NCBI RefSeq assembly: GCF_013122565.1 | Contig: NZ_CP053258.1 | Reading direction: 5' to 3' (one strand) | DNA length: 64,000 nt | Origin: Escherichia coli | GTDB taxonomy: Bacteria; Pseudomonadota; Gammaproteobacteria; Enterobacterales; Enterobacteriaceae | In this document: piece by piece, positions 21,751 through 42,993 of the stretch | How positions within the stretch are numbered: position 1 is the stretch's first letter | Layout of the letters: each line of letters begins with the position of its first letter | Translations under genes and position numbers: made by a program | The notes under the pieces: model-generated | The model's input: only the letters and a program-made list of their open reading frames with translations | What the model was told of the DNA's origin: nothing | Databases searched by the model: none

Positions 21751-22605
21751 ATGACTGACAAAATGCAAAGTTTAGCTTTAGCCCCAGTTGGCAACCTGGA
21801 TTCCTACATCCGGGCAGCTAACGCGTGGCCGATGTTGTCGGCTGACGAGGAGCGGGCGCTGGCTGAAAAGCTGCATTACCATGGCGATCTGGAAGCAGCT
21901 AAAACGCTGATCCTGTCTCACCTGCGGTTTGTTGTTCATATTGCTCGTAATTATGCGGGCTATGGCCTGCCACAGGCGGATTTGATTCAGGAAGGTAACA
22001 TCGGCCTGATGAAAGCAGTGCGCCGTTTCAACCCGGAAGTGGGTGTGCGCCTGGTCTCCTTCGCCGTTCACTGGATCAAAGCAGAGATCCACGAATACGT
22101 TCTGCGTAACTGGCGTATCGTCAAAGTTGCGACCACCAAAGCGCAGCGCAAACTGTTCTTCAACCTGCGTAAAACCAAGCAGCGTCTGGGCTGGTTTAAC
22201 CAGGATGAAGTCGAAATGGTGGCCCGTGAACTGGGCGTAACCAGCAAAGACGTACGTGAGATGGAATCACGTATGGCGGCACAGGACATGACCTTTGACC
22301 TGTCTTCCGACGACGATTCCGACAGCCAGCCGATGGCACCGGTGCTCTATCTGCAGGATAAATCATCTAACTTTGCCGACGGCATTGAAGATGATAACTG
22401 GGAAGAGCAGGCAGCAAACCGTCTGACCGACGCGATGCAGGGTCTGGACGAACGCAGCCAGGACATCATCCGCGCGCGCTGGCTGGACGAAGACAACAAG
22501 TCCACGTTGCAGGAACTGGCTGACCGTTACGGTGTTTCCGCTGAGCGTGTGCGCCAGCTGGAAAAGAACGCGATGAAAAAACTGCGCGCTGCTATTGAAG
22601 CGTAA
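21751..22605 (+). CDS. rpoH: Heat-shock sigma factor sigma-32
   Basis: 284 aa with sigma-70-family regions 2 and 4. Confidence 0.95.
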
Positions 22606-22625
22606 TTTCTGCTATTAAGCAGAGA

Positions 22626-22658
22626 ACCCTGGATGAGAGTCCGGGGTTTTGTTTTTTG
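22626..22658 (+). terminator. Rho-independent terminator of rpoH
   Basis: accctgga...tccggggt stem followed by ttttgtttttt. Confidence 0.55.
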
Positions 22659-22874
22659 GGCCTCTGTAATAATCAATTTCCCCTCCGGCAAAACGCCAAT
22701 CCCCACGCAGATTGTTAATAAACTGTCAAAATAGCTATTCCAATATCATAAAAATCGGGTATGTTTTAGCAGAGTATGCTGCTAAAGCACGGGTAGTCAT
22801 GCATAAAACGAAATAAAGTGCTGAACAACAACATCACAACACACGTAATAACCAGAAGAATGGGGATTCTCAGG

Positions 22875-23978
22875 ATGAACATAAAGGGTAAAGCGTTACT
22901 GGCAGGATGTATCGCGCTGGCATTCAGCAATATGGCTCTGGCAGAAGATATTAAAGTCGCTGTCGTGGGCGCAATGTCCGGGCCGGTGGCACAGTACGGT
23001 GACCAGGAGTTTACTGGCGCTGAGCAGGCGGTAGCGGATATCAACGCTAAAGGCGGCATTAAAGGCAACAAACTGCAAATCGTAAAATATGACGATGCCT
23101 GTGACCCGAAACAGGCGGTTGCGGTGGCGAACAAAGTCGTTAACGACGGCATTAAATACGTGATTGGTCACCTCTGTTCTTCATCAACGCAGCCTGCGTC
23201 TGACATCTACGAAGACGAAGGCATTTTAATGATCACCCCAGCGGCAACCGCGCCGGAGCTGACCGCCCGTGGCTATCAGCTGATCCTGCGCACCACCGGC
23301 CTGGACTCCGACCAAGGGCCGACGGCGGCGAAATATATTCTTGAGAAAGTGAAACCGCAGCGTATTGCTATCGTTCACGACAAACAGCAATACGGCGAAG
23401 GTCTGGCGCGAGCGGTGCAGGACGGCCTGAAGAAAGGCAATGCTAACGTGGTGTTCTTTGATGGTATCACCGCCGGGGAAAAAGATTTCTCAACGCTGGT
23501 GGCGCGTCTGAAAAAAGAGAATATCGACTTCGTTTACTACGGCGGTTATCACCCGGAAATGGGGCAAATCCTGCGTCAGGCACGCGCGGCAGGGCTGAAA
23601 ACTCAGTTTATGGGGCCGGAAGGTGTGGCTAACGTTTCGCTGTCTAACATTGCGGGCGAATCAGCGGAAGGGCTGCTGGTGACCAAGCCGAAGAACTACG
23701 ATCAGGTTCCGGCGAACAAACCCATTGTTGATGCGATCAAAGCGAAAAAACAGGACCCAAGCGGCGCATTCGTCTGGACTACCTACGCCGCGCTGCAATC
23801 TTTGCAGGCGGGTCTGAATCAGTCTGACGATCCGGCAGAAATCGCCAAATACCTGAAAGCGAACTCCGTGGATACCGTGATGGGGCCGCTGACGTGGGAT
23901 GAGAAAGGCGATCTGAAAGGCTTTGAGTTCGGCGTATTTGACTGGCACGCCAACGGCACGGCGACCGATGCGAAGTAA
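22875..23978 (+). CDS. livJ: Periplasmic Leu/Ile/Val-binding protein LivJ
   Basis: 367 aa from the MNIKGK Met with signal peptide; paralogous to LivK in this window. Confidence 0.92.
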
Positions 23979-23998
23979 CGGATAGATAAATGAAAATG

Positions 23999-24030
23999 CC
24001 CGATGCGCTTAACGTCCATCGGGTTTTTTT
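23999..24030 (+). terminator. Rho-independent terminator of livJ
   Basis: cccgatg...catcggg stem followed by a T7 run. Confidence 0.6.
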
Positions 24031-24082
24031 ATGTTTGTCGAAATGGTTGTAGAAAGATTAAACAATCCAGGATATGCTTATT

Positions 24083-24101
24083 GTACGGTGATGTGCCGTA
24101 C
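24083..24101. promoter_or_regulatory. Palindrome gtacggtgatgtgccgtac upstream of the DUF1778 antitoxin gene; candidate autoregulatory operator
   Basis: Inverted repeat read directly, about 25 bp upstream of the ATG at 24128. Confidence 0.4.
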
Positions 24102-24127
24102 ATATTATACGGAGCAGGAGAGTTCAC

Positions 24128-24394
24128 ATGTCTGCTGTTAAAAAGCAGCGTATCGATCTGCGTTTAACTGACGATGACAAAAGTATGATTGAGGAAGCTG
24201 CAGCGATATCTAATCAGTCCGTCAGCCAATTTATGTTGAACAGCGCTTCGCAGCGGGCTGCGGAAGTGATTGAACAGCATCGGCGGGTGATCCTCAATGA
24301 GGAATCCTGGACGCGGGTGATGGATGCGCTGAGTAATCCACCGTCACCAGGTGAAAAGCTAAAACGTGCGGCAAAACGTCTTCAGGGAATGTAA
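24128..24394 (+). CDS. DUF1778-type antitoxin (AtaR/TacA-like) of a GNAT toxin-antitoxin pair
   Basis: 88-aa ORF 6 bp upstream of a GNAT-toxin-like ORF; family assignment by resemblance. Confidence 0.65.
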   Translation: MSAVKKQRIDLRLTDDDKSMIEEAAAISNQSVSQFMLNSASQRAAEVIEQHRRVILNEESWTRVMDALSNPPSPGEKLKRAAKRLQGM

Positions 24395-24400
24395 TAATTT

Positions 24401-24928
24401 ATGGATGATCTGACGATAGAGATTCTGACCGATGATGCAGATTATGATCTACAGCGATTCGACTGCGGCGAGGAAGCGTTAAATCTCTTTCTGACGACAC
24501 ATCTAGTTCGTCAACATCGCAACAAAATTCTGCGAGCGTATATCCTTTGTCGCAACACTCCAGAACGTCAGGTGCTGGGATATTACACATTATCCGGCAG
24601 TTGTTTTGAACGAGCCGCATTGCCCTCGAAATCGAAACAGAAAAAAATTCCCTACAAAAATATTCCCAGCGTCACTCTTGGGCGTATGGCAATTGATCGT
24701 TCATTACAGGGGCAGGGATGGGGAGCAACACTGGTTGCTCATGCCATGAAAGTCGTCTGGTCAGCCTCTTTAGCAGTAGGTATTCATGGTCTTTTTGTAG
24801 AGGCGCTGAATGAAAAAGCCCATACGTTTTATAAATCGCTGGGCTTTATCCCGTTGGTCGGAGAAAACGAAAATGCGTTATTTTTCCCAACCAAATCCAT
24901 TGAACTGCTTTTTACACAGAGCGATTAA
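24401..24928 (+). CDS. GNAT-family acetyltransferase toxin (AtaT/TacT/ItaT-like, tRNA-acetylating type)
   Basis: 175 aa with acetyl-CoA-binding RMAIDRSLQGQGWGATLV motif; paired with the upstream DUF1778 ORF. Confidence 0.7.
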   Translation: MDDLTIEILTDDADYDLQRFDCGEEALNLFLTTHLVRQHRNKILRAYILCRNTPERQVLGYYTLSGSCFERAALPSKSKQKKIPYKNIPSVTLGRMAIDRSLQGQGWGATLVAHAMKVVWSASLAVGIHGLFVEALNEKAHTFYKSLGFIPLVGENENALFFPTKSIELLFTQSD

Positions 24929-25308
24929 CGCTTCTCCCAGCCGCCCTGTTGTGCCGTAAACCCCAGTGCCTGCATAAACGCTGTCATCACACCGCGATCT
25001 TCCACGCCTGCATCCGCCATCCACCAGCATGAAACGCCAGGATTGTTACGCAAAACCTCTTCCAGCAGATATTGCCCCACACCGCGACGGCGGGTGACTT
25101 CCCGCACGCGTAGAGATTCTAGTGCCCCCTCGGTGCCGCTTAAGGTTACCCGCACGGCCGCAAGCAGGCGCTCGTTAAAACGCGCGGCGTAGATGCGGTG
25201 GTTATCGTCAACCTGTAAAGAGGAAGGGGAATACTCCGGCCAGATCTTTTGCAGGTCAATCCGGTCCTGGTCGCTAAAGTTTTCTAATCGAATGATGGTC
25301 AGCTTCAT
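24925..25308 (-). CDS. panM: PanD maturation factor PanM/PanZ
   Basis: 127 aa GNAT-fold protein at the expected position between livJ and livK. Confidence 0.88.
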   Translation of the reverse strand: MKLTIIRLENFSDQDRIDLQKIWPEYSPSSLQVDDNHRIYAARFNERLLAAVRVTLSGTEGALESLRVREVTRRRGVGQYLLEEVLRNNPGVSCWWMADAGVEDRGVMTAFMQALGFTAQQGGWEKR

Positions 25309-25731
25309 GGGTAACCCGTGTAAATCACAAAAGTGGAACCAGTGTAGCGAAATAATTTAATCGGAGGCTTTCTCTTTTTTCTTTCTTTTGGCAGGTGATT
25401 AATTTTTTAACAGCAATAATTACAAAGTTAAAACATTAGAGAATGAAAAATACCCAGCATAATCCCCTGAATAGTAGTGAATTATTCCGCCCTTTGTGCC
25501 GTTATTTTATGCTGACAAAGGCACTTTTTTCTGTTTATCTATCAATAAATTCAGAATATTATCTGTTCTTAATCGACTGAAAAATAGGGATTTTAATCGC
25601 TATTATCACAAAATACTGCGCTAAACCCTTAATCAGACAGGCAAAAACAGTGCAGTATAAAAAAAGAACAGTCTGATTTGTTAACACATAAAAACAAAGC
25701 AACACAACATCACGAATGGGGATTTTTGACT

Positions 25732-26841
25732 ATGAAACGGAATGCGAAAACTATCATCGCAGGGATGATTGCACTGGCAATTTCACACACCGCTATAGCT
25801 GACGATATTAAAGTCGCCGTTGTCGGCGCGATGTCCGGCCCGATTGCCCAGTGGGGCGATATGGAATTTAACGGCGCGCGTCAGGCGATTAAAGACATTA
25901 ATGCCAAAGGGGGAATTAAGGGCGACAAGCTGGTGGGCGTGGAATATGACGACGCCTGCGACCCGAAACAAGCCGTTGCGGTCGCCAACAAAATCGTTAA
26001 CGACGGCATTAAATACGTTATTGGTCATCTGTGTTCTTCTTCTACCCAACCTGCATCAGATATTTACGAAGACGAAGGTATTCTGATGATCTCGCCGGGA
26101 GCGACCAACCCGGAGCTGACTCAACGCGGTTATCAACACATTATGCGTACTGCCGGGCTGGACTCTTCCCAGGGGCCAACGGCGGCAAAATACATTCTTG
26201 AGACGGTGAAGCCCCAGCGCATCGCCATCATTCACGACAAACAACAGTATGGCGAAGGGCTGGCACGTTCGGTGCAGGACGGGCTGAAAGCGGCTAACGC
26301 CAACGTCGTCTTCTTCGACGGCATTACCGCTGGCGAGAAAGATTTCTCCGCGCTGATCGCCCGCCTGAAAAAAGAAAACATCGACTTCGTTTATTACGGC
26401 GGTTACTACCCGGAAATGGGGCAGATGCTGCGCCAGGCCCGTTCCGTTGGCCTGAAAACCCAGTTTATGGGGCCGGAAGGTGTGGGTAATGCGTCGCTGT
26501 CGAATATTGCTGGCGATGCTGCCGAAGGCATGTTGGTCACTATGCCAAAACGCTATGACCAGGATCCGGCAAACAAAGGCATCGTTGATGCGCTGAAAGC
26601 AGACAAGAAAGATCCGTCCGGGCCTTATGTTTGGATCACTTATGCGGCGGTGCAATCTCTGGCGACTGCCCTTGAGCGTACCGGCAGCGATGAGCCGCTG
26701 GCGCTGGTGAAAGATTTAAAAGCTAACGGTGCAAACACCGTGATTGGGCCGCTGAACTGGGATGAAAAAGGCGATCTTAAGGGATTTGATTTTGGTGTCT
26801 TCCAGTGGCACGCCGACGGTTCATCCACGGCAGCCAAGTGA
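25732..26841 (+). CDS. livK: Periplasmic leucine-specific binding protein LivK
   Basis: 369 aa from the MKRNAK Met with signal peptide. Confidence 0.92.
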
Positions 26842-26849
26842 TCATCCCA

Positions 26850-26874
26850 CCGCCCGTGAAATGCGGGCGGGTTT
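26850..26874 (+). terminator. Hairpin after livK (ccgcccg...cgggcgg), possible attenuating terminator
   Basis: Inverted repeat followed by a short T-run. Confidence 0.4.
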
Positions 26875-26888
26875 AGAAAGGTTACCTT

Positions 26889-27815
26889 ATGTCTGAGCAG
26901 TTTTTATATTTCTTGCAGCAGATGTTTAACGGCGTCACGCTGGGCAGTACCTACGCGCTGATAGCCATCGGCTACACCATGGTTTACGGCATTATCGGCA
27001 TGATCAACTTCGCCCACGGCGAGGTTTACATGATCGGCAGCTACGTCTCATTTATGATCATCGCCGCACTGATGATGCTGGGCATTGATACCGGCTGGCT
27101 GCTGGTGGCGGCGGGATTCGTCGGCGCAATCGTCATCGCCAGCGCCTACGGCTGGAGTATCGAACGGGTGGCCTATCGCCCGGTGCGCAACTCCAAGCGC
27201 CTGATTGCGCTCATCTCGGCAATCGGTATGTCCATCTTCCTGCAAAACTACGTCAGCCTGACCGAAGGTTCGCGCGACGTGGCGCTGCCGAGCCTGTTTA
27301 ACGGGCAGTGGGTGGTGGGCCATAGCGAAAACTTCTCTGCCTCTATTACCACCATGCAGGCGGTGATCTGGATTGTTACTTTCCTCGCCATGCTGGCGCT
27401 GACGATTTTCATTCGTTATTCCCGTATGGGGCGCGCCTGCCGTGCCTGCGCGGAAGATCTGAAAATGGCGAGTCTGCTTGGCATTAACACCGACCGGGTG
27501 ATTGCGCTGACCTTTGTGATTGGTGCGGCGATGGCGGCGGTGGCGGGCGTACTGCTCGGTCAGTTCTACGGTGTGATTAACCCCTATATCGGCTTTATGG
27601 CCGGGATGAAAGCCTTTACCGCTGCGGTGCTCGGTGGGATTGGCAGCATTCCGGGAGCGATGATTGGCGGGCTGATCCTGGGGATTGCGGAGGCGCTCTC
27701 TTCTGCCTATCTGAGTACGGAATATAAAGATGTGGTCTCATTCGCCCTGCTGATCCTGGTGCTGTTGGTGATGCCGACCGGTATTCTGGGTCGCCCGGAG
27801 GTAGAGAAAGTATGA
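26889..27815 (+). CDS. livH: Branched-chain amino-acid ABC permease LivH
   Basis: 308 aa multi-TM permease. Confidence 0.93.
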
Positions 27816-29854: not shown

Positions 29855-30568
29855 ATGGAAAAAGTCATGTTGTCCTTTGACAAAGTCAGCGCCCACTACG
29901 GTAAAATCCAGGCGCTGCATGAGGTGAGCCTGCATATCAATCAGGGCGAGATTGTTACCCTGATTGGCGCGAACGGGGCGGGAAAAACCACCTTGCTCGG
30001 CACATTATGCGGCGATCCGCGCGCCACCAGCGGGCGAATTGTGTTTGATGATAAAGACATTACCGACTGGCAGACGGCGAAAATCATGCGCGAAGCGGTA
30101 GCGATTGTCCCGGAAGGGCGTCGCGTCTTCTCGCGCATGACGGTGGAAGAGAATCTGGCGATGGGCGGCTTTTTTGCCGAACGCGACCAGTTTCAGGAGC
30201 GCATAAAGTGGGTATATGAACTGTTTCCACGTCTGCATGAGCGCCGTGTTCAGCGGGCAGGCACCATGTCCGGCGGTGAGCAGCAGATGCTGGCGATTGG
30301 TCGCGCGCTGATGAGCAATCCGCGTTTGTTGTTACTTGATGAGCCATCGCTCGGTCTTGCGCCGATTATCATCCAGCAAATTTTCGACACCATCGAGCAG
30401 CTGCGCGAGCAGGGGATGACTATCTTCCTCGTCGAGCAGAACGCCAACCAGGCGCTGAAGCTGGCGGATCGCGGCTACGTGCTGGAAAACGGTCATGTGG
30501 TGCTTTCCGATACCGGCGACGCGCTACTGGCGAACGAAGCGGTGAGAAGCGCGTATTTGGGCGGGTGA
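29855..30568 (+). CDS. livF: Branched-chain amino-acid ABC ATPase LivF
   Basis: 237 aa from the MEKVML Met, Walker A GANGAGKTT. Confidence 0.93.
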   Translation: MEKVMLSFDKVSAHYGKIQALHEVSLHINQGEIVTLIGANGAGKTTLLGTLCGDPRATSGRIVFDDKDITDWQTAKIMREAVAIVPEGRRVFSRMTVEENLAMGGFFAERDQFQERIKWVYELFPRLHERRVQRAGTMSGGEQQMLAIGRALMSNPRLLLLDEPSLGLAPIIIQQIFDTIEQLREQGMTIFLVEQNANQALKLADRGYVLENGHVVLSDTGDALLANEAVRSAYLGG

Positions 30569-30686
30569 TTTATCAATAACCCGGCAGCTAAGTTCTGCCG
30601 GGTTATTTGTCTGTATACAGACTTGTTTCAACTGACCGGGAGGATTAAAAACTGTCCACTTATTTGCCACGGAAAGGTTCCCTCCC

Positions 30687-31433
30687 ATGCATTATGCCGT
30701 TGTCGCCATGCTTGAAATGCTTTGCTGTATCCACGCTTACCGTACCGGACAAGAGCGATATTGGTTTTTTATCATCTTCTGTTTTCCAGTGATTGGCTGC
30801 GTAGCGTATTTTGTCATGGTGATGCTGCCAGAAACGGGCGCTGACCGTCACGGGCGTACCTTTCTGATGCGCCTGCAGAACAAACTCAACCCTGAGCGCC
30901 ACCTGCGCAAATTAACCGAAGAACTGGCGATTGCCGAGACGAATCAAAACCATTATGCGTTGGCTAATGAACTGGCGCGTCTGGGGCGTTATCACGAAGC
31001 CGTTCCCCATTATCAGCAGGCGTTAAGCGGGATATTCGCCCATGAAGCGGCAATGATGCTAAGCCTGGCGCAGGCACAGTTTGCTATTCAGGAGTTTGCC
31101 GCCTGTCAGCAGACGCTGGAAGATGTGATGCGTTATAACCCTGATTTTCAGTCGGCAGACGGGCATTTGTTATTTGCCAGAACGTTAGCCGCACAAGAAA
31201 AATACGCTGATGCGGAAAGTGAGTTTGAAGTGTTGGTTTCTTATTACCCCGGCCCGCAGGCGCGTATTTACTATGCGGAAATGCTGGCGAAAATGAGTCG
31301 GTTACGTGAAGCCAACGAGCAGTATGTTGCTGTAGTTGATACGGCTAAACGCTCAAGACCTCATTATAGAAAACACCACCGGGAATGGATTAAGACCGCC
31401 AATGAACGGTTGAAGCAGAGTGTGGTGCAATGA
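30687..31433 (+). CDS. Hypothetical membrane protein: N-terminal PLDc_N-like two-TM domain plus cytoplasmic helical (TPR-like) repeat domain
   Basis: 248-aa ORF; N-terminus YWFFIIFCFPVIGCVAYFVMV resembles the PLD-nuclease N-terminal domain family; C-terminus predicted helical. Confidence 0.55.
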   Translation: MHYAVVAMLEMLCCIHAYRTGQERYWFFIIFCFPVIGCVAYFVMVMLPETGADRHGRTFLMRLQNKLNPERHLRKLTEELAIAETNQNHYALANELARLGRYHEAVPHYQQALSGIFAHEAAMMLSLAQAQFAIQEFAACQQTLEDVMRYNPDFQSADGHLLFARTLAAQEKYADAESEFEVLVSYYPGPQARIYYAEMLAKMSRLREANEQYVAVVDTAKRSRPHYRKHHREWIKTANERLKQSVVQ

Positions 31434-31654
31434 AAATCTTCTTTGCCGTTAGGCCAGTGTCGCGGCAATCTTTTGTTAAAATTGAAAAATGTAGCTTTCA
31501 TCGGGCAGCAAAACTGGACGCAGAATTTGCTGCCATTTTTGCTCTTCATGGTAAGGAGTTCTGGCGATTAGCTGGCCGTTAATCGCCTCTTTTCAGTGCA
31601 TTCTCGGGATATCCGTGCCCCATCTCCCATTTTCCCTCACCCGTACCGTCACCG

Positions 31655-31735
31655 CCTTGTCATCTTTCTGACACCTTACTATCTTACAAATGTAACAAAA
31701 AAGTTATTTTTCTGTAATTCGAGCATGTCATGTTA
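31655..31735 (+). promoter_or_regulatory. ugpB promoter region with Pho-box-like repeats
   Basis: cttgtcatctttctgacacc and ctgtaattcgagcatgtcatg resemble the PhoB consensus CTGTCAT-N4-CTGTCAT. Confidence 0.5.
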
Positions 31736-31792
31736 CCCCGCGAGCATAAAACGCGTGAATTCGCGCATTCGGTACAACAAGAGAGATAAACG

Positions 31793-33109
31793 ATGAAACC
31801 GTTACATTATACAGCTTCAGCACTGGCGCTCGGACTGGCGTTAATGGGGAATGCACAGGCAGTGACGACCATTCCGTTCTGGCATTCTATGGAAGGGGAA
31901 CTGGGTAAAGAGGTGGATTCTCTGGCCCAACGTTTTAACGCCGAAAACCCGGATTACAAAATTGTACCGACCTATAAAGGCAACTACGAACAGAATTTAA
32001 GCGCGGGGATTGCCGCATTTCGTACTGGCAACGCTCCGGCTATTTTGCAGGTTTATGAAGTTGGCACCGCCACCATGATGGCATCCAAAGCCATTAAACC
32101 GGTATATGACGTGTTTAAAGAGGCGGGGATTCAATTCGATGAGTCGCAGTTTGTGCCGACGGTTTCCGGTTACTACTCCGACAGCAAAACGGGCCACTTA
32201 CTCTCCCAGCCGTTCAACAGCTCGACTCCCGTTCTCTATTACAACAAAGACGCCTTCAAGAAAGCGGGGTTAGACCCGGAACAGCCGCCGAAAACCTGGC
32301 AGGATCTGGCGGACTATGCCGCAAAACTGAAAGCCTCCGGAATGAAGTGCGGCTACGCCAGCGGCTGGCAGGGCTGGATCCAACTGGAAAACTTTAGCGC
32401 CTGGAACGGTCTGCCGTTTGCCAGCAAAAACAACGGCTTTGACGGCACGGATGCGGTGCTGGAGTTCAACAAGCCGGAGCAGGTGAAACACATCGCCATG
32501 CTCGAAGAGATGAACAAGAAGGGCGATTTCAGCTACGTCGGGCGTAAGGATGAATCCACCGAGAAGTTCTATAACGGTGATTGCGCGATGACCACCGCCT
32601 CTTCCGGTTCTCTCGCTAATATTCGTGAGTACGCCAAATTTAACTATGGCGTAGGCATGATGCCTTACGACGCCGATGCGAAAGATGCACCGCAAAACGC
32701 CATTATCGGCGGGGCCAGCCTGTGGGTGATGCAGGGCAAAGATAAAGAAACGTATACCGGCGTGGCGAAGTTCCTCGACTTCCTCGCGAAGCCAGAAAAC
32801 GCTGCCGAGTGGCATCAGAAAACCGGTTATCTGCCAATCACCAAAGCAGCGTATGACCTGACCCGTGAGCAGGGCTTTTATGAGAAAAACCCAGGGGCGG
32901 ATACCGCGACGCGTCAGATGCTGAACAAGCCGCCGTTGCCGTTCACCAAAGGGCTGCGTCTGGGCAACATGCCGCAGACCCGCGTGATTGTGGATGAAGA
33001 GCTGGAGAGCGTGTGGACCGGTAAGAAGACACCACAGCAGGCACTGGATACCGCCGTTGAGCGTGGGAACCAGTTACTGCGCCGCTTTGAGCAGTCTACG
33101 AAGTCTTAA
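31793..33109 (+). CDS. ugpB: Periplasmic sn-glycerol-3-phosphate-binding protein UgpB
   Basis: 438 aa with signal peptide. Confidence 0.93.
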
Positions 33110-33116
33110 TCAGTGT

Positions 33117-33188
33117 AATGTCGGATGCGTTTCGCTTATCTGACCTGGCATCGCGTGTAGGCCGGATAAGCGAAGCGCATCCGGCACA
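33117..33188. repeat. REP-type palindromic element between ugpB and ugpA
   Basis: gtaggccggataagcgaagcgcatccggca read directly. Confidence 0.65.
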
Positions 33189-33206
33189 GTTCAGGAATTA
33201 ACCGTA

Positions 33207-34094
33207 ATGTCATCATCCCGTCCGGTGTTCCGCTCGCGCTGGCTGCCTTATCTGCTGGTCGCGCCGCAGCTCATCATCACCGTTATCTTTTTTATCTGGC
33301 CTGCGGGCGAAGCGTTGTGGTACTCGCTGCAAAGCGTCGATCCGTTTGGTTTCTCCAGCCAGTTTGTCGGCCTGGATAACTTCGTCGCGCTGTTTCATGA
33401 CAGCTACTATATCGACTCCTTCTGGACGACGATAAAATTCAGCACCTTTGTCACCGTCAGCGGTTTGCTGGTGTCACTGTTCTTCGCGGCGTTGGTGGAG
33501 TACATCGTGCGCGGCAGCCGTTTCTATCAAACCTTGATGCTGCTGCCGTATGCCGTGGCTCCCGCCGTTGCTGCCGTATTGTGGATCTTCCTGTTTAACC
33601 CCGGTCGCGGGCTGATCACCCATTTTCTCGCTGAGTTCGGCTACGACTGGAACCACGCGCAAAACAGCGGTCAGGCAATGTTTCTGGTGGTGTTTGCCTC
33701 GGTGTGGAAGCAAATCAGCTACAACTTTCTGTTCTTCTATGCCGCGCTGCACTCCATTCCCCGTTCGTTGATTGAAGCCGCAGCTATTGACGGCGCAGGG
33801 CCGATTCGCCGCTTCTTTAAGATTGCTCTGCCGCTTATCGCTCCGGTGAGTTTCTTCCTGCTGGTGGTGAACCTGGTGTACGCCTTCTTCGACACCTTCC
33901 CGGTGATCGACGCCGCCACGTCCGGCGGGCCGGTTCAGGCCACCACTACGCTGATTTATAAGATCTACCGCGAAGGCTTTACCGGACTGGATCTGGCTTC
34001 GTCTGCCGCGCAGTCGGTGGTGTTGATGTTCCTCGTCATCGTGCTGACGGTGGTGCAGTTCCGCTATGTTGAAAGCAAGGTGCGTTACCAATGA
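33207..34094 (+). CDS. ugpA: G3P ABC permease UgpA
   Basis: 295 aa multi-TM permease. Confidence 0.93.
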
Positions 34095-34936
34095 TTGAGA
34101 ACCGTCCATGGCTGACAATATTCAGCCATACCATGCTGATCCTCGGGATCGCGGTGATCCTCTTCCCGCTGTACGTGGCGTTTGTCGCGGCGACGCTGGA
34201 TAAACAGGCCGTCTACGCCGCGCCGATGACGCTAATCCCCGGCACGCATCTGCTGGAAAACATCCACAACATCTGGGTAAACGGGGTAGGCACGAATAGT
34301 GCGCCGTTCTGGCGGATGTTACTTAACAGCTTCGTGATGGCGTTCAGCATCACGCTCGGCAAAATTACCGTCTCGATGCTCTCGGCATTTGCCATTGTCT
34401 GGTTTCGTTTTCCACTACGTAACCTCTTCTTCTGGATGATTTTTATCACCCTGATGTTGCCGGTTGAAGTACGTATCTTCCCGACGGTGGAAGTCATCGC
34501 CAACCTGAAGATGCTCGACAGCTACGCAGGTTTAACGCTGCCGCTGATGGCCTCGGCGACCGCGACGTTTCTTTTCCGCCAGTTCTTTATGACCCTACCG
34601 GATGAACTGGTGGAAGCCGCGCGGATCGACGGCGCGTCGCCAATGCGCTTCTTTTGCGACATCGTTTTTCCGTTGTCCAAAACTAATCTGGCGGCGTTGT
34701 TTGTGATCACCTTTATTTACGGCTGGAACCAGTATTTGTGGCCGTTGTTGATTATTACCGACGTGGATCTCGGCACCACCGTGGCAGGGATCAAAGGGAT
34801 GATCGCCACTGGCGAAGGCACCACAGAATGGAACTCGGTGATGGCTGCGATGTTGTTAACGCTGATCCCTCCGGTGGTGATTGTTTTAGTGATGCAGCGT
34901 GCCTTCGTGCGCGGCCTGGTCGATAGTGAGAAATAA
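34091..34936 (+). CDS. ugpE: G3P ABC permease UgpE
   Basis: 281 aa multi-TM permease. Confidence 0.93.
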
Positions 34937-34937
34937 G

Positions 34938-36008
34938 ATGGCAGGACTGAAATTACAGGCAGTAACCAAAAGCTGGGATGGCAAAACCCAGGTGATTAAA
35001 CCGCTGACCCTTGATGTGGCGGATGGCGAATTTATCGTGATGGTCGGGCCGTCTGGCTGCGGGAAATCGACGCTGCTGCGCATGGTTGCCGGGCTGGAGC
35101 GGGTGACCGAAGGCGATATCTGGATCGACCGCAAGCGTGTCACCGAAATGGAGCCGAAAGATCGCGGGATTGCGATGGTGTTCCAGAACTACGCGCTTTA
35201 TCCGCATATGAGTGTTGAAGAAAACATGGCGTGGGGGCTGAAAATTCGCGGCATGGGCAAGCAGCAAATTGCCGAACGGGTTAAAGAAGCGGCGCGTATT
35301 CTGGAGCTGGACGGCCTGCTCAAACGTCGCCCGCGCGAGCTATCTGGCGGTCAGCGCCAGCGTGTGGCGATGGGCCGCGCGATTGTGCGCGATCCGGCGG
35401 TGTTCTTGTTTGATGAGCCGCTCTCTAACCTCGATGCCAAGCTGCGCGTGCAGATGCGTCTTGAACTGCAACAGCTGCACCGTCGCCTGAAAACGACTTC
35501 ACTCTACGTTACTCATGATCAGGTTGAGGCGATGACGCTCGCCCAGCGAGTAATGGTGATGAACGGCGGCGTTGCCGAACAGATTGGCACGCCAGTGGAA
35601 GTTTACGAAAAGCCCGCCAGCCTGTTTGTAGCGAGTTTTATCGGCAGTCCGGCGATGAACCTGCTGACAGGCCGCGTGAATAATGAAGGCACGCATTTCG
35701 AACTGGACGGCGGTATTGTGCTGCCGCTAAACGGTGGCTACCGTCAGTATGCCGGGCGTAAAATGACTCTCGGCATTCGCCCGGAACATATAGCGCTAAG
35801 CTCGCAGGCAGAAGGTGGTGTGCCGCTGGTGATGGACACGCTGGAGATCCTCGGCGCTGATAACCTGGCGCACGGACGCTGGGGCGAACAGAAGCTGGTG
35901 GTACGGCTGGCGCATCAGGAGCGCCCGACGGCAGGCAGCACGCTGTGGCTGCATCTGGCGGAAAATCAGCTGCATCTTTTTGATGGTGAAACAGGACAAC
36001 GAGTATGA
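34938..36008 (+). CDS. ugpC: G3P ABC ATPase UgpC
   Basis: 356 aa from the MAGLKL Met, Walker [10 protein letters not shown]. Confidence 0.92.
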
Positions 36009-36748
36009 GTAACTGGCCTTATCCCCGCATCGTCGCTCATCGTGGCGGCGGTAAGCTGGCCCCCGAAAACACCCTGGCGGCAATCGACGTCGGGGCAAAA
36101 TACGGTCATAAGATGATCGAATTTGACGCGAAGTTATCGAAAGATGGCGAGATCTTTCTGCTCCATGATGACAACCTCGAACGCACCAGCAACGGCTGGG
36201 GCGTCGCGGGTGAACTGAACTGGCAGGATTTACTGCGCGTGGATGCGGGCAGTTGGTACAGCAAAGTGTTTAAAGGTGAGCCGCTGCCGTTGCTTTCGCA
36301 GGTGGCGGAACGCTGTCGTGAACACGGGATGATGGCGAATATCGAAATCAAACCCACCACTGGCACTGGACCATTAACGGGCAAAATGGTGGCGCTGGCG
36401 GCACGCGAACTGTGGGGCGGTATGACGCCGCCGCTGCTGTCATCGTTCGAAATTGATGCTTTAGAAGCCGCACAGCTGGCGGCACCGGAACTGCCGCGTG
36501 GTTTATTGCTTGATGAATGGCGCGACGACTGGCGAGAACTGACCGCGCGGCTGGGCTGCGTCTCTATTCATCTCAATCATAAGTTACTCGATAAAGCGCG
36601 AGTGATGCAGTTGAAAGACGCCGGATTACGGATTCTGGTTTATACCGTCAATAAACCCCAGCGCGCGGCAGAGTTGCTGCGCTGGGGCGTGGATTGCATC
36701 TGTACCGATGCGATTGACGTGATTGGTCCGAACTTTACGGCCCAATAG
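36005..36748 (+). CDS. ugpQ: Glycerophosphodiester phosphodiesterase UgpQ
   Basis: 247 aa with HRGG active-site motif. Confidence 0.92.
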
Positions 36749-37175
36749 TTTTCAACGGAATGTCAGGCTGCGGCGTGCTGGGCTGATTCAGCATGTCGCC
36801 GTTTCTCCTCTCCGGCAGCATATGCTGCTGATTCAACGAACTATCCGGATTACGGTTGCTGTTTAACATCCCGCCGTTGGTGTTGGGCAGCATTTGCTGC
36901 CGGGCGGGATTTCGCTCCCCCGGCTGTGACTGCAACACCCGCTGAGAATTATTGTTTATCTGGTTTTCTAAATGCTGCTGTTGCAACTGAGTTTGCGTTT
37001 TCAGTTGCTGATTCAGCATCCCTTTTTGCTGGATTTGCTGCGTTTGCATCTGGGTTTGCATCCGCTGCTGGCTGGGGATCTGATATCCCGGCTGGTTGGG
37101 GTTATTCAGAGTATTAATGGGCTGTGCAAAGCCGACAAACGGCAGGAGTGCCGTAAGAATCAGAAGTCGTTTCAT
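36735..37175 (-). CDS. yhhA: Gln-rich secreted protein YhhA
   Basis: 146 aa with signal peptide and Q-rich low-complexity body. Confidence 0.85.
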
Positions 37176-37294
37176 CGCGTATCCTCCTCTGAAGATATCC
37201 TTTAAGTTTACTCGCTTCCCGACAAAACGATGATTAATTCAGAGTTATATACCAGGCTTAGCTGGGGTTGCCCCTTAATCTCTGGAGAATAACG

Positions 37295-39037
37295 ATGATA
37301 AAACCGACGTTTTTACGCCGGGTGGCCATTGCTGCTCTGCTCTCAGGAAGTTGTTTTAGCGCCGCCGCCGCGCCTCCTCCGCCACCTGTTTCTTATGGCG
37401 TGGAGGAAGATGTCTTCCATCCGGTACGCGCGAAACAGGGGATGGTGGCGTCTGTCGATGCCACTGCCACCCAAGTGGGGGTAGATATTCTAAAGGAGGG
37501 CGGGAATGCCGTTGATGCTGCCGTGGCAGTGGGCTACGCGCTGGCGGTAACGCATCCGCAAGCAGGGAATCTGGGCGGTGGTGGTTTTATGCTGATCCGC
37601 TCGAAAAATGGCAACACCACGGCTATCGATTTCCGCGAAATGGCACCCGCCAAAGCGACCCGCGATATGTTCCTCGATGATCAGGGCAACCCGGACAGCA
37701 AAAAATCACTCACTTCGCATCTGGCTTCCGGCACGCCCGGTACGGTAGCAGGTTTCTCGCTGGCGTTGGATAAATACGGCACCATGCCGTTGAACAAAGT
37801 GGTGCAACCGGCGTTTAAACTGGCACGCGATGGTTTTATCGTTAACGACGCGCTGGCTGACGATCTCAAAACCTACGGCAGTGAAGTGCTGCCGAATCAC
37901 GAAAACAGCAAGGCTATCTTCTGGAAAGAGGGCGAACCGCTGAAAAAGGGCGACACGCTGGTGCAGGCGAACCTGGCAAAGAGCCTGGAGATGATTGCTG
38001 AAAACGGCCCGGACGAATTCTATAAAGGCACGATTGCGGAACAGATCGCCCAGGAGATGCAGAAAAACGGTGGCTTGATCACTAGAGAAGATTTAGCGGC
38101 CTATAAAGCGGTGGAACGTACACCGATTAGCGGCGAATATCGCGGGTATCAGGTTTACTCGATGCCACCGCCATCTTCCGGTGGGATTCATATCGTGCAG
38201 ATCCTCAATATCCTGGAAAACTTCGATATGAAGAAATACGGCTTTGGCAGTGCCGACGCGATGCAAATCATGGCAGAAGCCGAGAAATATGCCTACGCCG
38301 ACCGCTCGGAATATCTTGGCGACCCGGATTTTGTCAAAGTCCCGTGGCAGGCGTTGACCAATAAAGCCTATGCCAAATCTATTGCCGATCAAATAGATAT
38401 CAATAAAGCGAAGCCATCCAGCGAAATTCGTCCTGGCAAGCTTGCGCCTTATGAGAGTAATCAAACTACCCATTACTCAGTGGTGGATAAAGACGGTAAC
38501 GCGGTGGCGGTGACCTATACGCTGAACACCACCTTCGGTACGGGCATTGTCGCGGGCGAGAGCGGTATTCTGCTTAATAACCAGATGGATGATTTCTCCG
38601 CCAAACCGGGCGTACCGAACGTTTACGGGCTGGTGGGCGGTGATGCCAACGCCGTCGGGCCGAATAAACGCCCGCTGTCATCGATGTCACCAACCATTGT
38701 GGTGAAAGACGGTAAAACCTGGTTAGTGACTGGTAGCCCAGGCGGTAGCCGGATCATCACTACCGTGCTGCAAATGGTGGTGAATAGCATCGATTATGGT
38801 ATGAATGTCGCCGAAGCGACCAATGCACCGCGTTTCCACCATCAATGGTTGCCGGACGAGCTGCGTGTCGAAAAAGGGTTTAGCCCGGATACGCTCAAGC
38901 TGCTGGAAGCAAAAGGTCAGAAAGTGGCGCTGAAAGAGGCGATGGGCAGTACACAAAGCATTATGGTTGGGCCGGACGGTGAGTTGTACGGCGCATCCGA
39001 CCCGCGCTCGGTGGATGATTTAACGGCGGGTTATTAA
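37295..39037 (+). CDS. ggt: Gamma-glutamyltranspeptidase
   Basis: 580 aa from the MIKPTF Met with signal peptide; GGT family. Confidence 0.93.
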   Translation: MIKPTFLRRVAIAALLSGSCFSAAAAPPPPPVSYGVEEDVFHPVRAKQGMVASVDATATQVGVDILKEGGNAVDAAVAVGYALAVTHPQAGNLGGGGFMLIRSKNGNTTAIDFREMAPAKATRDMFLDDQGNPDSKKSLTSHLASGTPGTVAGFSLALDKYGTMPLNKVVQPAFKLARDGFIVNDALADDLKTYGSEVLPNHENSKAIFWKEGEPLKKGDTLVQANLAKSLEMIAENGPDEFYKGTIAEQIAQEMQKNGGLITREDLAAYKAVERTPISGEYRGYQVYSMPPPSSGGIHIVQILNILENFDMKKYGFGSADAMQIMAEAEKYAYADRSEYLGDPDFVKVPWQALTNKAYAKSIADQIDINKAKPSSEIRPGKLAPYESNQTTHYSVVDKDGNAVAVTYTLNTTFGTGIVAGESGILLNNQMDDFSAKPGVPNVYGLVGGDANAVGPNKRPLSSMSPTIVVKDGKTWLVTGSPGGSRIITTVLQMVVNSIDYGMNVAEATNAPRFHHQWLPDELRVEKGFSPDTLKLLEAKGQKVALKEAMGSTQSIMVGPDGELYGASDPRSVDDLTAGY

Positions 39038-39043
39038 TATCTT

Positions 39044-39070
39044 AAGCCCTCTCCCGGTAGGTGAGGGCTT
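39044..39070. terminator. Bidirectional terminator hairpin between convergent ggt and yhhY
   Basis: aagccctc...gagggctt inverted repeat. Confidence 0.5.
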
Positions 39071-39097
39071 AAATGACAAACTTAGATTGCAAATTAT

Positions 39098-39586
39098 CTA
39101 TTTCACCCGCGCCATATAATACGCATCGACATATTCACCATTACGAAAAGCGTAATTTTTGCCGGTGCCTTCTATGTGAAATCCCAATTTTTTATAGACT
39201 GTGATTGCCGGGGCGTTATCCGCAAACACCGTCAACTCAATACGATCTATCCGTAACCAGTTGTCGCACATTTCAATCAATTCGCGGATCAGGGCGCTGG
39301 CGATGCCGCGGTTGTGCCAGCGGGAGTCAACACAGATACCAAAAGTTGCAACATGACTGCGGCGTGGGCCTTGATAAGCCTCAATGAAAAGATGACCCAC
39401 TACGATGCCATCAATGCAGGCAACCAGTTGTTTAAAACCTTGGCGATCTTTCAATCTTTCTGGCCACCAGCCTTCCGAAGGATGAGGTAGTTGTAGCGTG
39501 TTGCAATACACCTCCGGCTGGGCGTGAATCTGCCTGATGGCCTCGTAATCGCGCGTTTCAGCATGGCGTATCACTATCTCACTCAT
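39098..39586 (-). CDS. yhhY: GNAT N-acetyltransferase YhhY
   Basis: 162 aa from the MSEIVIRHA Met. Confidence 0.88.
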   Translation of the reverse strand: MSEIVIRHAETRDYEAIRQIHAQPEVYCNTLQLPHPSEGWWPERLKDRQGFKQLVACIDGIVVGHLFIEAYQGPRRSHVATFGICVDSRWHNRGIASALIRELIEMCDNWLRIDRIELTVFADNAPAITVYKKLGFHIEGTGKNYAFRNGEYVDAYYMARVK

Positions 39587-39683
39587 TCCTTTGTCCTCTT
39601 TGGGGTAAATGTCCCTTTCAACATCATTGACTTTCAAATGCGAGTCAAATGCATTTTTTTGCAAAAAGTGTTGGACAAGTGCG

Positions 39684-39705
39684 AATGAGAATGATTATTA
39701 TTGTC
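39684..39705 (+). promoter_or_regulatory. Fur box in the ryhB promoter
   Basis: aatgagaatgattattattgtc resembles the Fur consensus gataatgataatcattatc, immediately upstream of ryhB. Confidence 0.65.
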
Positions 39706-39707
39706 TC

Positions 39708-39800
39708 GCGATCAGGAAGACCCTCGCGGAGAACCTGAAAGCACGACATTGCTCACATTGCTTCCAGTATTACTTAGCCAGCCGGGTGCTGGCTTTTTTT
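39708..39800 (+). ncRNA. ryhB: Iron-responsive small RNA RyhB
   Basis: Sequence matches remembered RyhB (gcgatcaggaagaccctcgcggagaacctgaaagcacgacattgctcacattgcttccagtattacttagccagccgggtgctggctttt), ending in a hairpin plus T-run, in the yhhY-yhhX intergenic region. Confidence 0.88.
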
Positions 39801-39918
39801 TTGATCTTTCGTTCTCAATTTATCCACGGGAGTGCTTGTGTTCGTTATGCGCACTCCAGTAGGAACCACGTCCGCTTTGCGCTAAGGTGTAAATAACCAC
39901 CTTAAAAAGGACGAAATC

Positions 39919-40956
39919 ATGGTCATCAACTGCGCCTTTATTGGCTTCGGCAAAAGCACCACCCGTTACCATCTGCCGTATGTACTTAACCGCAAGGATA
40001 GCTGGCATGTCGCGCATATTTTTCGCCGCCATGCAAAGCCGGAAGAACAAGCTCCCATTTACTCTCATATCCATTTCACCAGCGATCTCGACGAAGTGCT
40101 AAACGATCCCGATGTTAAGCTGGTTGTTGTCTGCACCCATGCGGACAGCCACTTCGAGTACGCGAAGCGCGCGCTGGAAGCCGGGAAAAATGTGCTGGTC
40201 GAAAAACCGTTCACCCCGACGCTTGCCCAGGCGAAAGAGCTGTTTGCTCTGGCGAAAAGTAAAGGGCTGACCGTCACGCCATATCAGAATCGTCGCTTTG
40301 ATTCCTGCTTCCTGACGGCGAAAAAAGCGATTGAAAGCGGCAAGCTGGGAGAGATTGTCGAAGTGGAAAGCCATTTTGACTATTACCGCCCGGTGGCAGA
40401 AACCAAACCTGGGCTGCCGCAGGATGGCGCGTTCTATGGCCTTGGTGTGCATACGATGGACCAGATTATTTCTCTGTTCGGTCGCCCGGATCACGTCGCT
40501 TATGACATCCGCAGCCTGCGTAATAAAGCCAATCCTGACGACACCTTTGAAGCGCAGCTGTTTTATGGCGACCTGAAAGCCATCGTCAAAACCAGCCATC
40601 TGGTGAAAATCGATTATCCGAAATTTATCGTTCACGGTAAGAAAGGTTCGTTTATTAAATACGGTATCGACCAGCAGGAAACCAGCCTGAAGGCTAATAT
40701 TATGCCGGGCGAACCGGGATTCGCAGCGGATGATTCGGTCGGTGTGCTGGAGTATGTCAATGACGAGGGTGTGACGGTCAGAGAAGAGATGAAGCCAGAG
40801 ATGGGCGATTACGGGCGCGTTTATGATGCGTTGTATCAAACCATCACCAACGGTGCGCCAAATTACGTCAAGGAATCTGAAGTTCTTACCAATCTGGAAA
40901 TCCTTGAACGCGGATTCGAGCAAGCCTCTCCCTCCACAGTGACTCTCGCGAAGTAA
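39919..40956 (+). CDS. yhhX: Gfo/Idh/MocA-family oxidoreductase YhhX
   Basis: 345 aa. Confidence 0.9.
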   Translation: MVINCAFIGFGKSTTRYHLPYVLNRKDSWHVAHIFRRHAKPEEQAPIYSHIHFTSDLDEVLNDPDVKLVVVCTHADSHFEYAKRALEAGKNVLVEKPFTPTLAQAKELFALAKSKGLTVTPYQNRRFDSCFLTAKKAIESGKLGEIVEVESHFDYYRPVAETKPGLPQDGAFYGLGVHTMDQIISLFGRPDHVAYDIRSLRNKANPDDTFEAQLFYGDLKAIVKTSHLVKIDYPKFIVHGKKGSFIKYGIDQQETSLKANIMPGEPGFAADDSVGVLEYVNDEGVTVREEMKPEMGDYGRVYDALYQTITNGAPNYVKESEVLTNLEILERGFEQASPSTVTLAK

Positions 40957-41078
40957 GTTTGATGGCCCCTCGAATAGTTCAATTTTTTTGAACAGAGGGG
41001 TCAATTTTCACCCTCTATCATCCCAGGCAGATCGGGTCCACACTAAGCCCATCGAAATCATTCAGGGGGCGAATACAA

Positions 41079-41774
41079 ATGATCTACTTACGCAAAGCAA
41101 ATGAACGTGGTCATGCAAATCATGGCTGGCTGGACTCCTGGCATACTTTCTCTTTTGCCAACTATTACGATCCGAACTTTATGGGCTTCTCCGCGCTGCG
41201 CGTGATTAACGACGACGTGATTGAAGCAGGACAGGGCTTCGGCACTCACCCGCATAAAGATATGGAGATTTTGACCTACGTGCTGGAAGGTACTGTTGAG
41301 CATCAGGACAGCATGGGCAATAAAGAGCAGGTTCCGGCGGGTGAGTTCCAGATTATGAGTGCGGGTACGGGTATTCGTCACTCAGAGTACAACCCAAGCA
41401 GCACCGAGCGTCTGCATCTGTATCAGATCTGGATCATGCCTGAAGAAAACGGTATTACGCCGCGTTATGAACAGCGTCGCTTCGATGCCGTACAGGGCAA
41501 ACAGCTGGTGCTCTCGCCGGATGCGCGAGATGGTTCATTGAAAGTGCATCAGGATATGGAACTGTATCGTTGGGCGTTGCTGAAAGATGAGCAGTCGGTG
41601 CATCAGATTGCCGCTGAACGCCGCGTCTGGATCCAGGTGGTGAAAGGCAATGTCACCATTAACGGCGTGAAAGCCTCGACCAGCGATGGTCTGGCAATCT
41701 GGGATGAGCAGGCGATCTCCATCCATGCGGATAGCGACAGCGAAGTGTTACTGTTCGATCTGCCGCCGGTTTAA
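41079..41774 (+). CDS. yhhW: Pirin-like quercetin 2,3-dioxygenase YhhW
   Basis: 231 aa cupin-fold protein. Confidence 0.9.
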   Translation: MIYLRKANERGHANHGWLDSWHTFSFANYYDPNFMGFSALRVINDDVIEAGQGFGTHPHKDMEILTYVLEGTVEHQDSMGNKEQVPAGEFQIMSAGTGIRHSEYNPSSTERLHLYQIWIMPEENGITPRYEQRRFDAVQGKQLVLSPDARDGSLKVHQDMELYRWALLKDEQSVHQIAAERRVWIQVVKGNVTINGVKASTSDGLAIWDEQAISIHADSDSEVLLFDLPPV

Positions 41775-41997
41775 AACTCAACGGCATCTTTGAAGCCTGC
41801 CTTTTTGCAGGCTTCCTCGCTCGCTCCGGTCGCGTGCTGATGTACGCTTCCGGGGTTTTGCCGCGTCGTTAGCACAATGCGATGCAATTGATTTAGTGTA
41901 TATCTAATAATTGTAAACAAGCACTGTTTTCCCCGGGAAGGTTCTGATGCGTCCGTGTTAAACTAAGAGAATCTATCTCTTTTGTACCTTCAGGACG

Positions 41998-42993
41998 ATG
42001 AAAAAGAAAAGACCCGTACTTCAGGATGTGGCTGACCGTGTAGGCGTGACCAAAATGACGGTCAGCCGTTTTTTACGCAACCCGGAGCAGGTTTCCGTCG
42101 CTCTACGCGGCAAGATTGCCGCCGCTCTTGATGAACTGGGCTATATTCCCAATCGTGCGCCCGATATCCTCTCTAACGCCACCAGCCGGGCGATTGGCGT
42201 CCTGTTACCTTCTCTCACCAACCAGGTTTTCGCGGAAGTATTACGCGGAATCGAAAGCGTCACCGACGCGCACGGTTATCAGACCATGCTGGCGCACTAC
42301 GGTTATAAACCGGAAATGGAGCAAGAACGCCTCGAATCCATGCTCTCATGGAATATCGACGGCCTGATCCTCACCGAACGTACCCACACGCCGCGCACCT
42401 TAAAGATGATTGAAGTGGCGGGTATTCCCGTGGTGGAACTGATGGACAGCAAGTCGCCATGCCTCGATATTGCCGTCGGTTTTGATAACTTTGAAGCAGC
42501 ACGCCAGATGACCACTGCCATTATTGCTCGCGGGCATCGCCACATTGCCTATCTCGGCGCACGTCTCGACGAACGTACTATCATCAAACAGAAGGGGTAC
42601 GAACAGGCGATGCTGGATGCAGGTCTGGTGCCGTATAGCGTGATGGTTGAGCAATCTTCTTCTTATTCTTCCGGTATTGAACTGATTCGCCAGGCGCGGC
42701 GGGAATATCCGCAGCTGGATGGCGTGTTCTGTACCAACGATGACCTGGCGGTCGGCGCGGCGTTTGAATGTCAACGTCTGGGGTTGAAAGTTCCTGACGA
42801 TATGGCGATTGCCGGTTTCCACGGTCATGACATTGGTCAGGTGATGGAGCCACGACTGGCGAGCGTGCTTACGCCGCGTGAGCGGATGGGCAGTATTGGC
42901 GCTGAACGCCTGCTGGCGCGTATTCGTGGCGAATCTGTGACACCGAAAATGTTAGATTTAGGTTTCACCTTGTCACCGGGCGGATCTATTTAA
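41998..42993 (+). CDS. gntR: Gluconate repressor GntR (LacI family)
   Basis: 331 aa with N-terminal HTH (VTKMTVSRFLRNP). Confidence 0.93.
   Translation: MKKKRPVLQDVADRVGVTKMTVSRFLRNPEQVSVALRGKIAAALDELGYIPNRAPDILSNATSRAIGVLLPSLTNQVFAEVLRGIESVTDAHGYQTMLAHYGYKPEMEQERLESMLSWNIDGLILTERTHTPRTLKMIEVAGIPVVELMDSKSPCLDIAVGFDNFEAARQMTTAIIARGHRHIAYLGARLDERTIIKQKGYEQAMLDAGLVPYSVMVEQSSSYSSGIELIRQARREYPQLDGVFCTNDDLAVGAAFECQRLGLKVPDDMAIAGFHGHDIGQVMEPRLASVLTPRERMGSIGAERLLARIRGESVTPKMLDLGFTLSPGGSI

Follow-up and report, generated by a model that had tools for sequence, protein, structure and literature searches.

Sequence comparison points to a natural allele of the toxin-antitoxin operon ataR-ataT between livJ and panM of Escherichia coli

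The ataR and ataT genes

A 64,000-nucleotide stretch of the Escherichia coli contig NZ_CP053258.1 (assembly GCF_013122565.1), referred to here as the window, was found to carry two + strand genes between livJ and panM, an antitoxin gene followed after a gap of 6 nt (24395-24400) by a toxin gene. These correspond to ataR and ataT, which encode the AtaR-AtaT (AtaRT) toxin-antitoxin system of E. coli O157:H7. The layout was bicistronic, with a single Shine-Dalgarno sequence and promoter region upstream of ataR. Conservation here and below was assessed over six aligned loci, comprising three alleles of E. coli, one locus of E. albertii and two of E. ruysiae (from an isolate and from a metagenome contig, which encode the same AtaT). 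The coding features of the operon were as follows.

24128-24394, + strand: ataR, encoding an 88-amino acid antitoxin of the DUF1778/TacA type; ATG start (open reading frame list, Pfam, PDB match, RefSeq name AtaR)
24401-24928, + strand: ataT, encoding a 175-amino acid predicted GNAT aminoacyl-tRNA N-acetyltransferase toxin; ATG start (open reading frame list, Pfam, PDB match)
24116-24120, + strand: Shine-Dalgarno sequence AGGAG of ataR, 7 nt before the ATG and invariant in the six loci

Pfam analysis revealed AtaR to match PF08681 (TacA1/DUF1778) with 90.4 bits (cut-off 21) over residues 8-86, and AtaT to match two GNAT families, PF13508 with 31.9 bits (cut-off 27) and PF00583 with 29.1 bits (cut-off 20.7). 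The acetyl-coenzyme A (acetyl-CoA) motif of the family, Q/R-x-x-G-x-G/A, was legible in the AtaT translation as Q103-G-Q-G106-W-G108, and the catalytic tyrosine Y144 was also present. An earlier sequence-only reading of this stretch had described an 88-amino acid open reading frame followed 6 bp later by a 175-amino acid GNAT open reading frame with an acetyl-CoA motif, and had interpreted the two as a DUF1778/GNAT toxin-antitoxin pair most like AtaT. The open reading frame list, Pfam and the translation bore out the former description, and comparison of the proteins upheld the latter. AtaR was identical at 88 of 88 residues to crystallised AtaR (PDB 6AJM_C, 6GTO and 6GTS), and AtaT was identical at 173 of 175 residues (98.9%) to the crystallised AtaT of E. 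coli O157:H7 (6GTS_A), the differences being C65S and L96M. The next-best solved relatives were KacA (E = 2e-38) and KacT (E = 4e-74) of Klebsiella pneumoniae. More distant solved GNAT proteins, which we take to be TacT or ItaT, matched the AtaT of the window at E = 1e-20 to 1e-4. The exact AtaT sequence was already present in NCBI under the name AtaT (WP_171460219.1/QJU26541.1), and RefSeq names the two genes ataR and ataT in the 1625 complete E. coli genomes in which the segment was detected.

The agreement with the system of E. coli O157:H7 EDL933 (PDB 6AJM, 6AJN, 6GTO-6GTS and 7CHD) extended beyond the proteins to the gene order, the 6-nt gap, the position between livJ and panM, the overlapping stop codons of ataT and panM and the arms of the operator. 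Because it agrees with AtaRT in sequence, in the order of its genes, in its place on the chromosome and in its operator, the locus was assigned to AtaRT itself and not merely to an AtaRT-like pair; judged by these comparisons, it is almost certainly a natural allele of the chromosomal type II toxin-antitoxin operon ataR-ataT. Such a locus is already known, as publications cover its structure, the range of its substrates, its neutralisation and its autoregulation, and it carries its name in the reference annotation.

No observation spoke against this assignment, and a few points qualify it. No AtaT or AtaR model was matched in NCBIfam, where only sub-threshold matches to RimI, MobA and RelB models were returned; NCBIfam presumably holds no model for either protein, and RefSeq would then name them by another rule. 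A consensus promoter and terminator scan of 23900-25400 called nothing. The physiological role of chromosomal AtaRT has not been established in the literature (PMC8138530). Additionally, M96 was private to the AtaT allele of the window, with L96 invariant in the five other sequences aligned at this residue (O157:H7, AR_0058, E. albertii, E. ruysiae and a plasmid homologue of 69% identity), and this substitution adjoins R95.

Of the two substitutions, S65 proved to be the common state, carried also by the AR_0058-type allele of E. coli, by both E. albertii and E. ruysiae and by the 69%-identical plasmid homologue, with C65 in O157:H7. The private L96M could mean that the module is present but attenuated, the substitution weakening the toxin and the pair being a decaying remnant kept only by linkage. 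M96 was seen only in this allele, itself found on a single 4.82-Mb contig, at a position otherwise invariant down to the plasmid homologue, and it lies on strand beta4 beside the essential R95, just ahead of the acetyl-CoA motif. The R95A mutant of AtaT lost most of its toxicity and was comparable to the catalytic mutant Y144F, which together with G108D is a published loss-of-toxicity control (PMC7595197). However, Leu to Met is a conservative exchange, both open reading frames were full length, and the 21 AtaT residues with published structural or mutational evidence (PMC7595197) were all present in the window, namely A26, L27, F30, H34, R37, R40, N41, R71, S76, K77, S78, K79, K81, K82, P84, Y85, R95, G108, L136, Y144 and K165. 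In sequence, the residues for acetyl-CoA binding, catalysis, contact with the tRNA acceptor stem and the aminoacyl pocket were thus all intact. No change was seen in AtaR, in the arms of the operator or in the Shine-Dalgarno sequence either; an inactive toxin should relax selection on the antitoxin and the operator, and no such relaxation was seen. An attenuated remnant is therefore very unlikely and, because all published functional residues are present and the exchange is conservative, the toxin of this allele would be expected to be active.

Predicted mechanism and related systems

For the O157:H7 AtaT and AtaR, toxicity and its rescue, tRNA specificity determined by mass spectrometry and operator binding have been published (PMC7595197, PMC9177977), and Jurenas 2017 and 2019 are further cited on O157:H7 AtaRT in PMC8138530. 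By analogy with these near-identical proteins, the AtaT of the window would be active as a dimer and would acetylate aminoacyl-tRNAs using acetyl-CoA, thereby blocking translation. The initiator Met-tRNAfMet was the first AtaT target to be reported; Gly-, Trp-, Tyr- and Phe-tRNAs were later found to be acetylated efficiently too, and AtaT recognises G-C pairs of the tRNA acceptor stem (PMC7595197). In vivo liquid chromatography/mass spectrometry (LC/MS) and rescue by peptidyl-tRNA hydrolase (Pth) pointed to AtaT toxicity at elongation, through elongator tRNAs (PMC9177977).

The N-terminal ribbon-helix-helix domain of AtaR would provide DNA binding and its C-terminal part toxin neutralisation, the C-terminal region wrapping AtaT monomers such that AtaT dimerisation is prevented. 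Translation of ataT may be coupled to that of ataR, with a start codon 6 nt past the ataR stop codon and no strong Shine-Dalgarno sequence of its own. In an AtaT-AtaR4-AtaT heterohexamer, one AtaR ribbon-helix-helix dimer would occupy each arm of the operator palindrome and the operon would be repressed; excess AtaT would alter the stoichiometry, lower the affinity for DNA and lead to derepression. This conditional cooperativity has been described as part of AtaRT regulation (PMC8138530, PMC10135005).

It has also been proposed that AtaT acts on proteins, and its main role could accordingly be protein lysine acetylation and not tRNA acetylation. According to one paper (PMC7957018), AtaT acetylates EspB, a type III secretion protein, at K206 in enterohaemorrhagic E. 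coli, and this modification is stated to raise virulence. Structural, in vitro and in vivo LC/MS data nevertheless demonstrate acetylation of aminoacyl-tRNA, and AtaT toxicity is relieved by Pth (PMC7595197, PMC9177977); moreover, the module is present in approximately 30% of complete E. coli genomes as well as in E. albertii and E. ruysiae. Lysine acetylation is thus a highly improbable main role, and that of EspB would at most be a secondary activity in one pathotype.

By sequence, the closest distinct system to AtaRT is KacA-KacT (KacAT) of K. pneumoniae (PDB 5ZGN and 5XUN). KacAT has the same architecture, forms a T-A2-A2-T heterohexamer and shows conditional cooperativity, and it shares 73% (antitoxin) and 67% (toxin) identity with AtaRT (PMC6698736). 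It differs in being another orthologue from another genus, with relatives of 60-80% identity common on plasmids. TacA-TacT of Salmonella and ItaR-ItaT and AtaR2-AtaT2 of E. coli also combine DUF1778 and GNAT proteins and act by N-acetylation of aminoacyl-tRNAs, but with tRNA preferences unlike those of AtaT, TacT3 and AtaT2 being specific for Gly and ItaT preferring Ile/Leu (PMC9177977). The toxins also fall into different phylogenetic clades, namely A (basal) for AtaT, B for ItaT and D for TacT3/AtaT2 (PMC9177977). TacAT, ItaRT and AtaRT2 were far more distant from the pair in the window in sequence than was KacAT.

The predicted operator and other signals upstream of ataR

The 149-bp region between livJ and ataR contained three further signals.

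24082-24102, unstranded: predicted operator, the perfect inverted repeat TGTACGG-TGATGTG-CCGTACA (repeat finder, match to the kacAT operator, conservation)
24050-24078, + strand: candidate ataRT promoter with -35 TAGAAA (24050-24055), a 17-nt spacer and -10 TATGCT (24073-24078) (read from sequence)
23990-24032, + strand: intrinsic-terminator-like hairpin for livJ (inverted repeat, RNA fold, conservation)

The sequence-only reading had reported the palindrome gtacgg-N7-ccgtac ahead of the antitoxin gene and had taken it for an operator. The repeat was indeed perfect and upstream of ataR, but its arms were 7 bp long, one base more per arm than had been described. TGTACGG-N7-CCGTACA had its sole match in the window at this site, even with up to three mismatches allowed. 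Among shuffled versions of the 149-bp intergenic region, 13% contained a perfect inverted repeat whose arms reach 7 bp or more and whose spacer does not exceed 20 nt, and such a repeat alone would be unremarkable; the significance of the palindrome comes from its exact match to an independently defined operator and not from the repeat itself. The 27-bp kacAT operator duplex that was co-crystallised with KacA4KacT2 (PDB 5ZGN) is AAATGTACGGTTATTAACCGTACATGA (PMC6698736). Comparison of the window palindrome with this duplex showed that both 7-bp arms (TGTACGG/CCGTACA) and the 7-nt spacing were identical, the kacAT spacer being the AT-rich TTATTAA. The chance expectation of an exact match to this arm and spacing pattern in 149 bp was approximately 5e-7.

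The N-terminal beta-strand of KacA reads DNA via R8, D10 and R12, and the substitutions R8A and R12A abolish binding (PMC6698736). Residues 5-19 of AtaR were identical to those of KacA, R8, D10 and R12 included. A 3.36 Å crystal structure of the AtaRT heterohexamer on the palindrome of its own operator is also reported in PMC6698736. The assignment to an AtaRT operator rests on the oligonucleotide of the KacAT paper and on that paper's account of the AtaRT-DNA structure. A literature search with the operator sequence as a literal string returned only unrelated papers.

Across the six loci, 0 of 14 positions varied in the arms, compared to 5 of 7 in the spacer (Fisher p = 0.001). Variation in the spacer also exceeded that of the remaining intergenic region, in which 15 of 128 positions varied (p = 0.0008). 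In O157:H7, for example, the spacer was TGACATA in place of the TGATGTG of the window, and the base flanking the left arm was A, which gives an 8-bp palindrome, whereas T in the window leaves 7 bp. A related motif, AGTACGG-TGATATG-CCGTACA, was located upstream of the antitoxin gene on the E. coli plasmid NZ_AP022089.1, which encodes the toxin that is 69% identical to AtaT. This motif lay approximately 120 nt before the antitoxin start codon compared to 26 nt in ataRT, implying a long leader or another promoter layout for the plasmid pair.

The match to the kacAT oligonucleotide, the conserved DNA-reading residues of AtaR and the invariant arms with a variable spacer are three independent lines by which 24082-24102 is predicted to be an operator of the AtaR/KacA family; on the sequence side, the earlier operator reading was therefore supported, the arms and spacing being those of the operator crystallised with KacA, whose identity to AtaR is 73%. 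That the repeat is instead a chance palindrome, as its frequency among shuffles might allow, or an RNA or DNA hairpin of the ataRT leader, which would likewise keep its arms constant around a variable centre, is scarcely credible given the exact match to the co-crystallised KacA4KacT2 DNA, the identical DNA-contacting residues, the reported AtaRT operator complex and the recurrence of the motif at another distance from the start codon on the plasmid. A possible third half-site, TATACGG (24106-24112), with one mismatch from TGTACGG, was rejected as not conserved, since E. albertii has TATATGG at this place and E. ruysiae TATAAGT, in contrast to the invariant arms.

The -35 TAGAAA and -10 TATGCT hexamers of the candidate promoter were invariant in the six loci of three species. 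With 8 of 12 consensus positions, TAGAAA-N17-TATGCT fell below the threshold of 9 used in the promoter scan. Conservation and analogy with kacAT suggest that this is the ataRT promoter, with transcription starting at approximately 24085, inside the left operator arm. Such a start would fit the kacAT system, in which the palindrome spans the transcription start site (PMC6698736). An alternative promoter composed of TTGTAC (24081-24086), a 16-nt spacer and TATTAT (24103-24108) was weaker and was not conserved in O157:H7 or E. ruysiae; its transcription start would lie near 24115.

The hairpin downstream of livJ had the 7-bp, G+C-rich stem CCCGATG (23999-24005)/CATCGGG (24017-24023) with an 11-nt loop, followed by seven T residues (24024-24030). 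Its predicted fold had an energy of -18.8 kcal/mol (z = -4.9), which was equalled by none of 200 shuffles, and the stem was conserved in the six loci. The consensus scan missed this hairpin because its loop exceeds 8 nt. The hairpin belonged to the ataRT-haplotype segment and was absent from K-12, such that livJ would have a different intrinsic terminator in the ataRT haplotype. A search of 22500-26000 against Rfam at E <= 1 revealed no known RNA element, with only two chance-level matches far below the gathering scores.

The livJ-panM interval in Escherichia

The genomic slot of the module was defined by its two neighbours, both outside the operon, and by alignment with E. coli K-12 MG1655.

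23979-24921, unstranded: segment present in the window and absent from K-12, 943 bp, 45.1% G+C (pairwise alignment with K-12 MG1655)
22875-23978, + strand: livJ, periplasmic branched-chain amino-acid binding protein, upstream neighbour (open reading frame list, RefSeq annotation of homologous loci)
24925-25308, - strand: panM (panZ/yhhK), acetyl-CoA-binding activator of PanD, convergent neighbour (PF12568 PanZ, 191.9 bits; RefSeq)

The position between livJ and panM given in the sequence-only reading agreed with the RefSeq annotation of homologous loci and with the PF12568 match of panM. Alignment with K-12 MG1655 showed that homology ends at the livJ stop codon (TAA, 23976-23978) and picks up again at approximately 24922, where panM has its stop codon. 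Instead of the module, K-12 carries a 187-bp livJ-panZ interval, which we take to consist of repetitive extragenic palindromic (REP)-type repeats. The G+C fraction of the segment was 0.451, compared to 0.543 for livJ, 0.562 for panM and 0.522 for the whole window. No direct repeats or target-site duplication were visible at the module boundaries in the K-12 alignment.

Megablast analysis of 23979-24940 against 5426 complete E. coli genomes revealed the segment to be present in 1625 of them, in one copy each, always chromosomal and always abutting panM, and RefSeq annotates ataR, ataT and panM at these loci. When the interval itself was classified, 3748 of the complete genomes (~69%) had the K-12 type and 1612 (~30%) the ataRT type. 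As these together account for ~99%, the livJ-panM interval of E. coli is essentially biallelic. The O157:H7 strain ECP19-598 and two further E. coli genomes had the same gene order and the same 4-nt overlap between ataT and panM. The residue encoded at 24929-24931, PanM residue 127, was Arg in all five ataRT-bearing loci examined and Cys in K-12, which places the right haplotype junction at the very last codon of panM.

E. albertii and E. ruysiae were also found to carry ataRT in the identical slot, with identical junctions and the same 4-nt stop codon overlap. Identity to the window in E. ruysiae was ~95% for ataRT and 93-97% for the flanking genes; in E. albertii it was 97% for ataRT and 92-94% for the flanks, such that ataRT had diverged somewhat less. 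No match of more than 80% identity to AtaT was found on plasmids, on which KacT-like relatives of ~69% identity were common (524 records with 60-80% identity), and a recent plasmid origin of the module is for this reason unsupported.

The module is accessory in E. coli and, since both its position and its junctions are shared by E. albertii and E. ruysiae, it appears to be an old, site-fixed presence/absence polymorphism of the genus Escherichia and not a recent mobile insertion. The earlier description of the module as inserted was therefore right in that a 187-bp K-12 interval is replaced, but not in the sense of a recent insertion. Gain of the module and its loss in K-12-type strains are both compatible with the data.

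Two side observations concern the surroundings of the slot. In E. albertii CP117643.1, genes of the phosphotransferase system (PTS) mannose/sorbose family lay upstream of livJ instead of rpoH, and an IS1 copy was located between panM and livK; the ataRT slot was unaltered. Comparison of 22800-26900 and 30000-50000 with the 5426 complete genomes showed the nearest to be only ~97.5-98% identical to the window, which probably derives from a divergent E. coli-like lineage. The latter region was covered to at least 80% in only 1729 of the 5426 genomes, and its best matches had a RecQ-family helicase and a DprA-like DNA-processing protein annotated among ggt, ugpB and gntU, which suggests a further accessory segment within 30000-50000.

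At the right end of the module, the ataT stop codon TAA (24926-24928, + strand) and the panM stop codon (24925-24927, - strand) overlapped tail-to-tail over 4 nt (24925-24928). The same overlap was present in O157:H7, AR_0058, E. albertii and E. ruysiae, and the scan of 23900-25400 detected no terminator between or near the two genes. AtaT and PanM are both GNAT-fold acetyl-CoA-binding proteins, and PanM senses acetyl-CoA and, through its control of PanD, governs CoA synthesis. In the literature searched, neither panM nor panZ was mentioned alongside AtaT or AtaR. There is only a slim chance that the conserved overlap is functional, with convergent transcription coupling the acetyl-CoA-consuming toxin to PanM expression; if it were, derepression of the toxin-antitoxin operon would damp panM, or panM transcription would damp the operon.

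Beyond the correct annotation of a textbook AtaRT module, the importance of this locus is small. It adds that the operator half-sites are common to AtaRT and KacAT and are invariant in three Escherichia species while the spacer drifts. It further adds a biallelic livJ-panM interval whose ataRT state is common to E. albertii and E. ruysiae at identical junctions, and a private L96M substitution beside the essential R95 of AtaT in the strain from which the window derives.

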